Shown here: piece after piece, positions 4,071 through 8,900 of the stretch
Layout: every line of letters starts with the position of its first letter
Position numbering within the stretch: the stretch's first letter is position 1
DNA from: a virus
Taxonomy: Duplodnaviria; Heunggongvirae; Uroviricota; Caudoviricetes
Length of the DNA stretch: 11,845 bases
Reading direction: 5' to 3' (one strand)
Virus record (IMG/VR): IMGVR_UViG_2541047885_000017
Coordinates: 1 to 11,845 of that record
Translations under genes and position numbers: made by a program
The notes under the pieces: generated by a model
What the model was told of the DNA's origin: nothing
The model's input: only the letters and a program-made list of their open reading frames with translations
The model's database searches: none

Positions 4071-5290
4071 TCGTCACCGCCCTGACTGTTCTTGCTGATT
4101 GTCACTTCCTGCTTCCATGCCTGGCTGAACTCGTCGCCACCTTCACGCGGCGGCATTCCCTCACGCTCACGGGCTTCGTTCGGATTCATGATCCCGTTCT
4201 TAATCCCTTTCTCATACGTGGCGTAACGTTCGGTAGGGGTGGCGCGTAATAAATCAGCTGAATCAAACTCAACCAAATAACGGGTACCGGGTACGGGAGA
4301 AGCCACCAGCAAAGCGGCCTTGATTTGCTGTTCGAAGTTCGCCAGCCACGGGCGCATTGTCATGGTCAGAAACGCGCGGCTTGCCTCGCTGAAATTGCTG
4401 TAGGTGCTGTTGCTGTATTCCTGCAGAAAAATAGGCGATACGTTGAACATCCGGGCGATGTCTTCAATGGAGAAGCGACGGGAGGCCAGCCATTCCGCAT
4501 CCTGGTTACTCATTCCCAGTTGCTTGTAATCCATGCCCCCTTCAAGGATTGGCGTTTTTCCGGCATTTTTCGCCCCCTTGTAGCGTTCCAGAGCATCCAA
4601 TGCCTGTTTACCTTTCACGCCGTCCAGCCATTCGCCTGACGTGATAATCCCTGCCGCCATCATGCCATCTTTCATAATGCTGGCTCCGTGGCGCTGTTGA
4701 GCAAGGCCAAGCCCAAGTGCCTCACGGCAAATCGTGACAGGGGAGCGCCCCAGAAAGCCATCATCCGAGGCATAGCGGAGATGCAGAACTTCTTCCTGTA
4801 AATACGTGCGCACCGTTCCTGTATAGGGTTCGGTGATGGTATAGCGGTATTTGTGTGCGCCTGTGCGTTCCGGTACAACACAACCCGGTGCATAAGGATG
4901 AAGTGATTTTGGCTGACCGTCCCGCCCCCACTCAATAACCGCATAGGCGTTACCGTTCAGCAGGCAGTGACGCATCATTGTGCGTTTAAACTGGTAAGGT
5001 GTCTGGCACGAATTAGGCTGCTCATTCAGCAGAATATCTACCGGATGACTGTCCAGCCATTCCCGCGCCTCCCTGCCCTTGTCATTACGTACCAGATACA
5101 GATAACAAGGCATCGTGGCCACCGCCTCAGCGATGACAGAAACCGCGTTCATCACTGCAGGCAATGATTCAGCCGTCCCGGCAGAAACATATTCTCCGGA
5201 TCCGGTATTCGGTACGCCGGCCAGCGCCAGAAAATCATCAATGGACAGGTTACGTTGCTCACTTTTTTTACGACTAAAAGGCCACCACAT
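4067..5290 (-). CDS. Phage portal protein, HK97 family
   Basis: The track ORF (4067-5380) carries a Cys-rich 30-aa N-terminal extension that overlaps the protease gene. The Met at 5290 (MWWPFSRKKSEQ...) lies 1 nt after the protease stop and gives about 407 aa, typical portal length. The assignment rests on that length and on the conserved position between prohead protease and head-tail connector genes; no diagnostic motif was identified. Confidence 0.85.
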   Translation of the reverse strand: MWWPFSRKKSEQRNLSIDDFLALAGVPNTGSGEYVSAGTAESLPAVMNAVSVIAEAVATMPCYLYLVRNDKGREAREWLDSHPVDILLNEQPNSCQTPYQFKRTMMRHCLLNGNAYAVIEWGRDGQPKSLHPYAPGCVVPERTGAHKYRYTITEPYTGTVRTYLQEEVLHLRYASDDGFLGRSPVTICREALGLGLAQQRHGASIMKDGMMAAGIITSGEWLDGVKGKQALDALERYKGAKNAGKTPILEGGMDYKQLGMSNQDAEWLASRRFSIEDIARMFNVSPIFLQEYSNSTYSNFSEASRAFLTMTMRPWLANFEQQIKAALLVASPVPGTRYLVEFDSADLLRATPTERYATYEKGIKNGIMNPNEAREREGMPPREGGDEFSQAWKQEVTISKNSQGGDE

Positions 5291-5906: not shown

Positions 5907-7076
5907 CTAGCCAGCTTTCATTTCCAGAATTTTGATGGCGTTTGAATCCACCACACCACCGCCCAGATATTTATCCGTGTGGACCTTGTAGAATCCGGGT
6001 TCAGTAATGTTGTCCGGTCGGGTGCGAATACCCGTTACATGATCAACGATGAAATAACCACGACTGAAATCACCAACCGCGAGCGGTGCTTTTCCTGCGC
6101 CGATGTCCGGCATGGACTCCAGGCAGTAAACAGGACGACCAAGCAACATATCCGGCGCACCTTCTTTAAGGCTGTCGCGCCAGATATAATCTCCATTCTC
6201 ATTTTTCAGCTTCTGTAGTGTCCCTGCCGTGCCCGAGTTCATCACCCAGACGGCATTTTTGCGGTATTTCGCTTTCAGCTTGTAGAGAATGTCGATCAGT
6301 TCGTCCGCTGTAATGGAGGTTCCACTTGCCGCTACCATTTTTTCAATGGTGCCAAAAGCGCGGGTTTTGTCACTGGTCGCTGCACGGGTGTAAGCCATGA
6401 AGCCTTTCGGCTTGCCGTTACCGTCGCCATTAACAAAATCATCCTCTTCGGTGCTGGCGAACGTGTCGGCAATTTCGGAGGATAACCAGCCCAGAATATC
6501 CACCTCTGAAAAATCCAGGATTTCCTGCGTGGTTTTCGGGTAGGCGTAGATCGGATTCAGCTTGATGGTTACGCGTTCAATTTTCGGGGTGTTGGTTTCG
6601 CTGCGCGCGCTGCCTTCTGTGCCTCGTCCTACAGTTGCGCCGCCAGTGGAAACCAGTTTCTGAAACTCATTTGATTTTGCGGTCTTCACGGTCGCGATCA
6701 CGCGCATAACACTGTCATCCTGTAGCTGGCGCATGACTTCGCGATCAAGCTCAGGAATTACGGTATATCCGCCATCCCTGCCGCTGTCAGTGCTGGTGGA
6801 CAGTGATCGCACATCTCCGGTTACGATGTAGTTACGCAATTCATCAGATGATAATTTCTGGATGCCCGTTCCTGGCTTGCTGCGTTCTTCATCAGCCACA
6901 GACTCGAGGCGGGAAATTTCTGTGTCGAGGGAATCGGCTTTTGCACGCAGTTCATCAAACTGTTTGCCCTCGTCATCGTTCAGGCTGCGGTTTTCACTGT
7001 CGGCTTTTTCCAGCAGGGATCGCATCTGGTTTTTCAGGGCGGTTTTTTGCTGGCGGAGTTCGATTAATTTCTTCAT
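5907..7076 (-). CDS. Major capsid protein, HK97 fold, with N-terminal delta/scaffold domain
   Basis: 389-aa ORF. The first 100 or so residues are a coiled-coil-like charged region (MKKLIELRQQKTALKNQMRSLLEKADSENRSL...), as in HK97-type capsid delta domains, followed by a capsid-sized body; adjacent to the prohead protease. Confidence 0.9.
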   Translation of the reverse strand: MKKLIELRQQKTALKNQMRSLLEKADSENRSLNDDEGKQFDELRAKADSLDTEISRLESVADEERSKPGTGIQKLSSDELRNYIVTGDVRSLSTSTDSGRDGGYTVIPELDREVMRQLQDDSVMRVIATVKTAKSNEFQKLVSTGGATVGRGTEGSARSETNTPKIERVTIKLNPIYAYPKTTQEILDFSEVDILGWLSSEIADTFASTEEDDFVNGDGNGKPKGFMAYTRAATSDKTRAFGTIEKMVAASGTSITADELIDILYKLKAKYRKNAVWVMNSGTAGTLQKLKNENGDYIWRDSLKEGAPDMLLGRPVYCLESMPDIGAGKAPLAVGDFSRGYFIVDHVTGIRTRPDNITEPGFYKVHTDKYLGGGVVDSNAIKILEMKAG

Positions 7077-7270
7077 GAAGGTTTTCTCGTATTGGTTAAG
7101 ATTCAGGACGTGAAACCAACACGGAGGGAGCGCCGCCCGACACTCTCAGCATCTCGCAGATCAACCCGGCATCGCGCAGGGGGTCAGGCGGCATTGTGGC
7201 GGCTCACGTCTGAGTGCCACACGCCAACATATACATAAAAATCAGTATGTAAACATCAGCCAGAATCACC

Positions 7271-7296
7271 GAACAATCTGGAACAACCGCGAACAA
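7271..7296. promoter_or_regulatory. Three GAACAA direct repeats at exactly 10-bp phasing upstream of the capsid operon
   Basis: Read directly: GAACAA at 7271-7276, 7281-7286 and 7291-7296 (TTGTTC on the coding minus strand). They lie between the terminator and the capsid start in a 273-bp non-coding leader. A regulatory role is inferred. Confidence 0.3.
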
Positions 7297-7313
7297 ATAA
7301 TTTACAAAACCTG

Positions 7314-7340
7314 AAAAAAGACCCGGGAAAAATCCGGGCC
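7314..7340 (-). terminator. Rho-independent terminator
   Basis: Minus-strand RNA reads GGCCCGG-AUUUUUC-CCGGGUC followed by UUUUUU: a GC-rich stem of 5-7 bp, 7-nt loop and T-tract. It starts 10 nt after the stop of the 82-aa ORF and is followed by a long leader before the capsid gene. Confidence 0.6.
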
Positions 7341-7349
7341 TTTATCGCT

Positions 7350-7598
7350 TTACTGTTTCACGGGATCGCGCATTCTGCGCCTTATTTTCCACAAATATTC
7401 GATCATCGCTTCCACCTGCTCACGGTTGGTTGCGAAAATTTCCCCGGTCAGTGAGCTGCGCAGAAAATCATGATGATCCACAACAAACAACGCATCGGAA
7501 GAAAGCAGACGGCGATATTTTTTTGCTGTCGTGGTTTCCAGATCATCAAAACCATGAAACTTTTTATGTTGCTGAACTTCTTCAAATGTCACAGGCAT
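7350..7598 (-). CDS. Hypothetical protein (82 aa)
   Basis: Track ORF 7350-7637; preferred start is the internal Met at 7598 (MPVTFEEVQQHKKF...), preceded by AGGAGGA with a 5-nt spacer. No recognisable motif. Last gene before the terminator. Confidence 0.5.
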   Translation of the reverse strand: MPVTFEEVQQHKKFHGFDDLETTTAKKYRRLLSSDALFVVDHHDFLRSSLTGEIFATNREQVEAMIEYLWKIRRRMRDPVKQ

Positions 7599-7643
7599 GT
7601 TTCCTCCTGCTACCACGATACCAGAAACAGTTAACAACCGTTA

Positions 7644-7925
7644 TCAATTATCCCTTTTTTTCGGGTAGTTCCTGAACATCTCACCGCCAGGTTTCTGTAA
7701 GCCCATCCCGGTATGTGTGCGGTTTATGGCCTCTTTCAGTATTCCGAAATTATCCGGTATGACTGGTTGGCGCGCTGCCTTACGGATACATTCCGCGCGA
7801 CGCTTTGCCACCTGTTCGCGCTCCTTGTCAGTGCTCACCAGCCACATAACATCAGCCCAACGTGCCGCTGCTCTCCGGTACAGCCCTTTAGCCTCCAGTT
7901 CTTCCGCTTTGCTGTCTTTAATCAT
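7644..7925 (-). CDS. Small regulatory protein, possibly PerC-family transcriptional activator-like
   Basis: Preferred start is the ATG at 7925 (MIKDSKAEELEAKGLYRRAAARWADVMWLVSTDKEREQVAKRRAECIRKAARQP), preceded by GAGG with a 6-nt spacer. The KAEELEAKGLYRRAAARW...RR..CI pattern resembles PerC/Pch-type activators as I recall them; this is not verified by search. Confidence 0.45.
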   Translation of the reverse strand: MIKDSKAEELEAKGLYRRAAARWADVMWLVSTDKEREQVAKRRAECIRKAARQPVIPDNFGILKEAINRTHTGMGLQKPGGEMFRNYPKKRDN

Positions 7926-7940
7926 GCTGTACCTCACTGC

Positions 7941-8366
7941 TTAAAACGGTATCCCGTCCCCGTACGGGTCATCGTGCTGGCTTGTCTGTTGTTTTGCCCT
8001 GTTCAGTGCGTCAGTGTCCTGGCCCTGTTGACCTTTTTTGCCGCCCGGTCGCGCCGTTCGCGCACTGATTACGCTGTCTGCAATAACCTGCCAGCCCTGC
8101 CGCGTTTCCCCGTTCTGGCCTGTCCACTGGCTCACCTGCATTGTGCCGGATACGCTGGCAACATCGCCTTTGTGGTGTTTAGCCAGGAAGTCAGCCTGTT
8201 TGCCAAATGCGATGACCGACAACCACAACGTCGCCTGTCCGTCCTGTGCCTGACTGCATGGCAGTGATACCGCCATACGCGCCAGCGTCATCGGTGTGCC
8301 CTTGCTGGTCTGTTTTACCTGCGGGTCGTCCACCAGCCGCCCGTAAGCGGCTATCTGTGCTGTCAT
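7941..8366 (-). CDS. ssb: Single-stranded DNA-binding protein
   Basis: 141-aa ORF. The OB-fold region aligns by eye with E. coli SSB (GRLVDDPQV vs GNLGQDPEV; WLSVIAFGKQADFLAKHHKGDVASVSGTMQVSQWTGQNGE vs [41 protein letters not shown]). Gly/Gln-rich linker and acidic tail ending DGIPF (cf. DDDIPF). Strong RBS GGAGAGG. Confidence 0.85.
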   Translation of the reverse strand: MTAQIAAYGRLVDDPQVKQTSKGTPMTLARMAVSLPCSQAQDGQATLWLSVIAFGKQADFLAKHHKGDVASVSGTMQVSQWTGQNGETRQGWQVIADSVISARTARPGGKKGQQGQDTDALNRAKQQTSQHDDPYGDGIPF

Positions 8367-8620
8367 GATTCCACCTCTCCGGTTTTAACGTTGATGGTTG
8401 TTACCTGTTCTGCTTCTGCGATCTCCCGTTCTGTCAGCGTGGCAAAGTTTGCCGCTGCTGTGGTCATGAATGCGCTTATCAGGTCGGGATGTGCTTTCGC
8501 GTATCCTTCCCCCGTGTTGCGGTCGATGATTTTTATCGCCACTCTCAGCCAGTGCTCTGTAAGGTCAATGGCGCGGTTATGCTGCTTCTTCTGATTATTA
8601 AGTTTTCCTGATGTGCGCAT
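8363..8620 (-). CDS. Hypothetical protein (85 aa)
   Basis: ORF between the iteron block and ssb. Its stop overlaps the ssb start (ATGA). No recognisable motif. Confidence 0.45.
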   Translation of the reverse strand: MRTSGKLNNQKKQHNRAIDLTEHWLRVAIKIIDRNTGEGYAKAHPDLISAFMTTAAANFATLTEREIAEAEQVTTINVKTGEVES

Positions 8621-8663
8621 TTTTATTTTTACCCCCTCGTTTAAAAAGTTTTGAGTTGTGCCT

Positions 8664-8900
8664 CCCCCCCTCTACCCATCTACCCGAATGCTCATCATGT
8701 CAGTAATGGCGCGGCTTTCAGCGGGTAGATAGCTTTTTTGGCTCCTCTACCTGCCGTCTACCCTGCTACCTGAAACTGATAAAATCAGGTAGAAGAGGTA
8801 GAGAGCTTTTATTAGCCTTCTACCTGGCCCTCTACCTACTTATCATGTTGAATAATATGCGTTTATTTCATTCAGGTAGATGGGGTAGAGGGCTTTTACA
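8664..8900. repeat. Iteron array; putative origin of replication
   Basis: Read directly: about 12 copies of the hexamer TCTACC or its complement GGTAGA in about 220 bp, mostly in closely spaced pairs (8671/8679, 8723 rc, 8746/8757/8766, 8788/8797 rc, 8819/8831, 8875/8884 rc), interspersed with AT-rich stretches (8771-8786, 8837-8873). A 28-bp unit CAGGTAGAnGnGGTAGAGnGCTTTTA recurs at 8786 and 8873. Located immediately 3' of the primase-helicase gene. Confidence 0.7.

Follow-up and report, generated by a model that had tools for sequence, protein, structure and literature searches.

What does a PerC-type regulator do in a satellite that encodes its own capsid? The question is raised by a reading frame at positions 7644–7925 of the window, by which we mean the whole stretch of viral DNA that was analysed (11,845 nucleotides). 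A preliminary description had read this frame as a possible PerC/Pch-type activator of the kind that controls virulence loci in pathogenic Escherichia coli, and had supposed that it might act on the packaging promoter of the satellite or on genes of the host.

Reading frame, family and predicted fold

The frame runs on the minus strand from an ATG at 7925 to a TGA stop at 7644–7646, and its product of 93 aa starts MIKDSKAEELEAKGLYRRAAARW. In the program's list of open reading frames it appears as a 97-aa version that begins at an upstream GTG (7937). A Shine-Dalgarno element, GAGG (7932–7935, minus strand), can be read from the sequence 6 nt 5' of the ATG, and the RefSeq annotation pipeline (PGAP) calls an identical 282-nt CDS in the nearest public island. 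Thus the ATG start and the coordinates proposed previously are right, and the N-terminal motif quoted at that time corresponds to residues 6–23. The identical protein is public on 690 contigs, where it is named "PerC family transcriptional regulator".

The family had been assigned from the motif, with a search against the PerC profile suggested as a check, and this search gave a clear answer. The protein matches Pfam PerC (PF06069) with E=2.6e-35 and 121 bits against a gathering cutoff of 22.6 bits, residues 1–89 aligning with model positions 1–89 of 90, that is, over the full length. Among the PHROGs the match is to phrog_994 (E=2.3e-42), together with several "transcriptional activator" families that cover the N-terminal 50 residues only. 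By these two matches, Pfam PerC and phrog_994, the frame is evidently a genuine gene and not a chance ORF. PerC of EPEC E2348/69 (plasmid pMAR2; L027:18487-18756) is 45% identical over 87 aa (E=8e-27), Sakai PchA 51% over 87 aa and Sakai PchE 60% over 88 aa, which makes PchE the closest of the three reference proteins. A plasmid match (H45) was set aside as a PerC reference, not being on an EAF plasmid, and the authentic pMAR2 protein was used. The protein also has the size typical of the family (about 90 aa) and its N-terminal motif, [KA]xxLExKG[LF]YRRAAxRW, which does not vary among 29 homologues and also occurs in EPEC PerC and in PchA. Judged by sequence, therefore, it belongs to the PerC/Pch family. 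This family is narrow, since a profile search among 1.84 billion cluster representatives finds just 352 relatives at E<=1e-3.

Conservation within the family is very uneven. In a set of 29 homologues spanning Escherichia, Erwinia, Pantoea and Lonsdalea, no variation is seen at D4, K6, A7, E8, L10, E11, G14 to A20, R22, W23 or C46; between Escherichia and Erwinia the first 23 positions are nearly unchanged, while the C-terminal half has drifted. Such a pattern fits a conserved host partner better than operators specific to each element. An AlphaFold2 model of the protein consists of four helices, the N-terminal 50 residues (pLDDT 81–90) including a TPR-like unit of three helices. Neither a helix-turn-helix nor a winged-helix fold is detectable in this model, and so a classical DNA-binding transcription factor, for which such a fold would be expected, was rejected as a description of the protein. 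A sequence search of the PDB with the 93-aa protein returned no relative.

An optional cassette in a capsid-forming island

The satellite context proposed in the preliminary description is borne out by the reading frames, their Pfam matches and a homologous public island, which identify the window by its gene content as a capsid-forming PICI (cf-PICI). All of its genes lie on the minus strand, and int and alpA lie outside the window. In the order of transcription there are a DUF4222 protein, a D5_N/DUF5906 primase, a phrog_1231 protein, SSB, PerC and an 82-aa phrog_1957 protein, followed after a gap of 273 nt by the major capsid protein, prohead protease, portal, head closure, connector, HNH, TerS and TerL. 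Among public islands the closest match is that of E. coli CEA106S, situated between thiM and rcnR; it has the same modules and also, at its far end, genes for an integrase and an HTH regulator, and it carries no tail or lysis genes. This architecture, to which the CEA106S-type island corresponds, is the one described for cf-PICIs (10.1101/2022.09.08.507074).

Directly 5' of perC and in the same operon lies ssb (7941–8366, minus strand; Pfam SSB, E=1.8e-16), and 3' of it the 82-aa gene (7350–7598, minus strand; phrog_1957, E=1.6e-36), whose product has no Pfam match. The major capsid gene (5907–7076, minus strand), recognised as a reading frame and from the PGAP annotation of the homologous island, is the first of the packaging operon. 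Most of the 80 cf-PICIs compared below, PerC-less ones included, have the 82-aa gene 5' of their capsid gene, at identities down to 30%; it is far more consistently present at this position than PerC and may be a genuine core gene. Further upstream, between the phrog_1231 gene and the stop codon of the primase, positions 8660–8900 are densely filled with short direct and inverted repeats (GGTAGAnnG / CCCTCTACC) at a GC content of 38–46%, an array that looks like the iteron-type replication origin of the satellite. Searches of the window against Rfam gave no RNA family at gathering scores.

The gap between the ssb stop codon (7941–7943) and the perC ATG is just 15 nt, which leaves no room for a promoter, and a consensus scan of the minus strand over 7925–8400 found no sigma-70-like promoter able to drive PerC alone. 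Thus perC, though equipped with a ribosome-binding site, apparently lacks a separate promoter and is co-transcribed with the replication-module operon. The unit of ssb, perC and the 82-aa gene ends, before the capsid operon, at a predicted intrinsic terminator (7314–7343, minus strand; GGCCCGG-ATTTTTC-CCGGGTC followed by T6), which the promoter scan missed but which was recognised by eye in the sequence and then borne out by its folding energy (-18.4 kcal/mol, z=-3.2 relative to shuffled sequences). Beyond it, some 150 nt from the capsid ATG, the consensus scan places a promoter-like TTTACA-16-TATGTT (7226–7253, minus strand) 5' of the capsid operon. It falls within a leader core (about 7196–7255) that is the most conserved stretch of the capsid leader, being 86–90% identical in many distant cf-PICIs whose capsid proteins are just 76% identical. 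Some part of the leader is matched in 78 of the 80 loci, and the exact promoter-like string occurs in 24, most of them without PerC. By this conservation the leader core is evidently a strongly conserved regulatory element, and the succession of terminator and promoter-like element suggests that the packaging operon needs an input of its own.

Is PerC that input? To judge by its distribution in 80 cf-PICI loci, with capsids 76–100% identical to that of the window, it is probably not. An HMM built from the 29 diverse homologues and applied at a threshold of E<=1 matches eight of these loci and leaves 72 with no PerC homologue even at this threshold, about six of the 80 having less than 2 kb of sequence 5' of the capsid gene. 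In the alignment, perC is a clean presence/absence polymorphism: a single indel of about 325 nt (7617–7940, minus strand; boundary ambiguous by 1 nt) comprises its ribosome-binding site, the reading frame and a tail of 27 nt, and in the islands without it nothing separates the ssb stop codon from the ribosome-binding site that serves the 82-aa gene. Those islands keep capsid leaders 97–99% identical to that of the window (99.3% in L039, 98.5% in L034). The proposed control of the packaging promoter therefore finds no support, nor does a place for perC among the core genes of cf-PICIs. Since the gene is missing from most of the sister satellites whose capsid operons and leaders are nearly identical, it is most likely optional accessory cargo and not part of the core satellite machinery.

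Among the closest relatives (capsid 98–100% identical) the slot behind ssb exists in three states. It is empty (about 20 nt) in 10 loci; it holds PerC (a gap of about 346 nt) in seven loci, to which L058 adds a divergent PerC; and in seven further loci it is occupied by a gene of 176–180 aa of the ProQ/FinO family (PF04352, E=9e-25), an RNA-chaperone family represented by positions 5945–6487 of L041 and by six other cf-PICI loci. Variability in the regions flanking the cf-PICI packaging module has been described by He et al., perC and proQ are counted as accessory satellite genes in a survey from 2026, and PerC variants were reported in 2018 to be carried by some E. coli PICIs only (PMC6092414).

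Relatives of known function and a probable role

The closest parallel is provided by EHEC Sakai, where PchE (ECs_1588), a group 3 PerC homologue of 90 aa, is assigned to "prophage Sp7". The gene order there (primase, other genes, ssb, pchE, ECs_1589, major head protein, protease, portal, other genes, TerS, TerL) is that of the window. Because the succession of ssb, pchE, small gene and major head gene is the same, the window gene is, by gene order, the positional counterpart of pchE. Thus it has the location that marks group 3, with ssb on one side and, on the other, the small gene next to the major head gene of a cf-PICI. Group 1 (PchA/B/C) was rejected as its class, given its 93 aa compared with about 104 aa, its location in a cf-PICI and not in a lambdoid prophage, and its 51% identity to PchA. 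Sp7 is an integrase/primase element of 15 kb; the small genes of the two elements (the 82-aa gene and ECs_1589) encode proteins 43% identical, and the capsid proteins are 63% identical. The two regulators are different alleles, with 40% of residues differing, and the chromosomal sites also differ, Sp7 lying between roxA and phoQ and the closest island to the window at thiM/rcnR. We also note that the Sakai "prophage Sp7; untypable" (15.4 kb; L112 19711-35171 = NC_002695.2 1594711-1610171) is itself a complete cf-PICI, most likely equivalent to EcCIEDL933, and that its legacy annotation names the gene at the HNH endonuclease position "holin protein" and the connector "phage DNA packaging protein".

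What is known of these relatives provides clues on function. When overexpressed, PchE acts as a repressor of csgD and curli and increases the expression of flagella, and deletion of pchE slightly raises curli, a phenotype seen without induction; effects on LEE are small, with none reported on LEE1, and most of the PchE phenotypes come from overexpression from plasmids (PMC6265319, PMC7369912). Basal expression of pchE has been reported, which falls upon SOS induction. The group 1 genes, in contrast, are induced by SOS, and LEE expression requires them. Their products are H-NS counter-silencers encoded by lambdoid prophages, pchA (104 aa) lying near the lysis region of the lambda-like Sp4. [quoted passage not shown] By ChIP, Fukui et al. 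found Pch associated with many chromosomal loci; binding of purified Pch to DNA was not demonstrated, and co-precipitation with H-NS was unsuccessful.

The founding member of PF06069, EPEC PerC (BfpW), is homologous to the window protein over its full length, and the two have in common the N-terminal motif (KAKYLEEKGFYRRAADRW versus KAEELEAKGLYRRAAARW) and the C-terminal MGL...FRNY residues. Their settings differ: perC of EPEC is plasmid-borne, in the perABC operon beside the AraC-type perA, and its product activates LEE1, while the window gene lies beside ssb in a satellite, and none of its nearest tested relatives is an activator of LEE1. The only PerC-like gene characterised in a satellite study, EcCIMP1_025, is PICI-borne as in the window, on the classical PICI EcCIMP1. 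Its product is about 40% identical to the PerC-like proteins of EcCIEDL933 and EcCICFT073 and silences LEE1 in Citrobacter rodentium, a role similar to that of ANR proteins having been proposed (PMC11773190). The EcCIEDL933 and EcCICFT073 proteins are reported to leave LEE1 unaffected, a result of Porter et al. (2005) cited here at second hand (PMC11773190, PMC6092414). The family thus acts in opposed directions, PerC and PchABC activating LEE1 and EcCIMP1_025 repressing it (PMC11773190). Of the supposition that the window gene regulates host genes, this leaves the regulation plausible, while the label of an activator of virulence loci is unsafe, given the absence of a LEE1 effect for PchE and other PICI-borne PerC-like proteins, the repression of LEE1 by EcCIMP1_025 and that of csgD and curli by PchE (PMC11773190, PMC6265319, PMC7369912).

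In this context, we put forward as the probable explanation that the window encodes a small, all-helical PerC/Pch regulator, carried as optional cf-PICI cargo, which remodels H-NS-silenced DNA and alters the expression of surface and virulence genes of the host. The mechanism and the targets we infer from its relatives. The 325-nt cassette behind the ssb stop codon would be transcribed with the replication-module operon; its product, by analogy with Pch, would associate with AT-rich DNA under silencing by H-NS, StpA and Hha, remodelling the nucleoprotein complex; and the host genes affected would mostly be horizontally acquired or encode surface structures. The targets on record for PchE are curli and csgD (lowered) and flagella (raised), LEE1 being unaffected. 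Some points qualify this proposal. With 60% identity to PchE, the window allele may have different targets; the reported basal expression of pchE is not explained by a cassette devoid of a promoter; and the conserved order of primase, SSB and PerC in genera where no LEE is expected hints at a role for the element itself.

The last point is seen in 22 loci of other genera, in which PerC follows primase, in some cases with SSB and ProQ between them, in satellites without the capsid module of the window (gene orders are approximate here, having been obtained with a strand-prioritised ORF caller). They come from Escherichia, Enterobacter, Kluyvera, Shimwellia, Buttiauxella, Klebsiella, Leclercia, Citrobacter, Pantoea, Erwinia, Lonsdalea and others, and the order SSB-PerC or SSB-ProQ-PerC recurs in satellites of many genera. 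In an alternative scenario, PerC would serve the mobile element as an establishment or counter-silencing factor co-expressed with SSB (and ProQ/FinO in relatives), freeing satellite or helper DNA from H-NS or tuning the interplay of satellite and helper, its effects on virulence genes of the host being secondary. The order of primase, (SSB), (ProQ) and PerC is conserved in the satellites of more than 15 genera, plant-associated and environmental ones included (Erwinia, Pantoea, Lonsdalea, Buttiauxella, Shimwellia), in which one would expect no LEE island; lambdoid phages have PerC-domain genes close to their replication genes, and such genes also occur in Klebsiella phages with a size of about 70 kb; PerC and ProQ/FinO genes are neighbours on conjugative plasmids (IncK2/Z); and positions 7200–7700, at 41–46% GC, are the most AT-rich part of this stretch. 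The occurrence in plant-associated and environmental genera makes this the most interesting alternative, but we consider it rather unlikely: the AT-richness is modest, the gene is dispensable in most cf-PICIs and carried as variants by some E. coli PICIs only, no PerC protein is known to affect the yield of a phage or satellite, and the EcCIMP1 work characterised its PerC-like gene solely for its effect on LEE. We regard as similarly unlikely the broader notion that PerC proteins are primarily satellite and plasmid cargo, interchangeable with ProQ/FinO behind ssb, that their ancestral role was to reprogramme or counter-silence nucleoid-bound DNA to the advantage of an element being induced or just arrived, and that EPEC PerC and EHEC Pch were later co-opted from a satellite gene.

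The two remaining scenarios appear less probable still. The protein might act as an ANR-like (AraC-negative-regulator) repressor or anti-activator, sequestering AraC-family activators or H-NS by protein-protein contact. Aar and its relatives are likewise small helical regulators from mobile DNA, with a weak similarity to the window protein over the N-terminal three helices; a close homologue (P0092) was deposited as "ANR family"; EcCIMP1_025, for which such a role was proposed by its authors, represses LEE1; no DNA-binding fold is detectable in the model; and plasmid PerC genes adjoin genes for HTH regulators, as with perA in EPEC. Nevertheless, the match to the ANR profile (NCBIfam NF033650, ANR_neg_reg; residues 6–52, E=0.094) reaches 12.6 bits, far under the 32-bit cutoff and to be compared with 121 bits for PerC, so that by profile the protein is not a member; the many loci occupied by Pch in ChIP and the failure to co-precipitate H-NS also speak against this mode of action, which seems to us improbable. 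Least likely of all, and very doubtful indeed, is a late activator made from the replication operon that switches on the capsid and packaging promoter. The layout invites this idea, as perC lies one small gene 5' of the capsid operon and the terminator and the conserved promoter-like element separate the two units. As a core function it is ruled out by the presence of PerC in eight of 80 loci. Moreover, the islands without PerC keep the leader and the promoter-like string at up to 99.3% identity, their post-ssb slot being empty or holding ProQ/FinO, and PerC occurs in the 22 loci whose satellites lack this capsid module. Finally, alpA is required for the induction and transfer of EcCIEDL933 (10.1101/2022.09.08.507074), and its overexpression alone suffices for reproduction of that island (He et al.). 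The AlpA protein of Pseudomonas aeruginosa acts as a processive antiterminator, by which intrinsic terminators are bypassed (PMC7969949, PMC9371919), and antitermination by AlpA might offer PICIs a route past the terminator at 7314–7343 that is independent of PerC.

Much of this was already known, namely the RefSeq annotation as PerC, the PerC variants of PICIs noted in 2018 and the study of pchE at the same position, and our result changes little in this respect. What is useful about it is negative: the gene is not to be regarded as a regulator of the capsid operon, nor automatically as one that activates virulence. To this we add, as a minor point, that the post-ssb slot is an exchange point for small global regulators (empty, PerC or ProQ/FinO), whose variants constitute natural near-isogenic islands for testing the function of the cargo.

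Further observations on PerC-bearing elements and a second slot

The comparison of loci yielded several observations in their own right. The interval from the 82-aa gene to the capsid gene is a second variable slot, with a length of about 278 nt or about 832 nt (L047, L048, L050, L052, L054, L033, L037, L043, L055, L057). In L047 the long form contains, on the opposite strand, a 168-aa reading frame (4395–4901) without a Pfam match, which may be an uncharacterised defence or accessory gene; PADLOC returned no defence-system match for it, nor for PerC, the 82-aa gene or the ProQ-like gene.

The classical PICIs L028-L030 have SSB, ProQ and PerC in tandem and carry two genes of the PerC family, a truncated 54-aa copy named "PchE" after SSB-ProQ and a 98-aa copy near the far end. 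The truncated form is present on 47 contigs, and so the N-terminal three-helix unit seems to persist alone. A circular E. coli "plasmid" of 12,152 bp (L003; NZ_CP148430.1) encodes an integrase, AntA, a DUF4222 protein, an Icd-like protein, a TOPRIM/DUF927 primase and PerC, and has the appearance of a PICI-type satellite that was excised and then assembled as a plasmid. Lastly, satellites of Enterobacter, Lonsdalea, Pantoea, Erwinia and Buttiauxella (L008, L014, L015, L019, L020, L023) encode, about 1–5 kb 3' of PerC, a protein of about 600–1050 aa that resembles tape-measure proteins weakly and below threshold (TMP_2, E=0.003), an unusual cargo for a satellite. In L014, L015, L019 and L020 it is followed by a DUF5681 protein; in certain loci a PRiA4_ORF3 protein follows as well.
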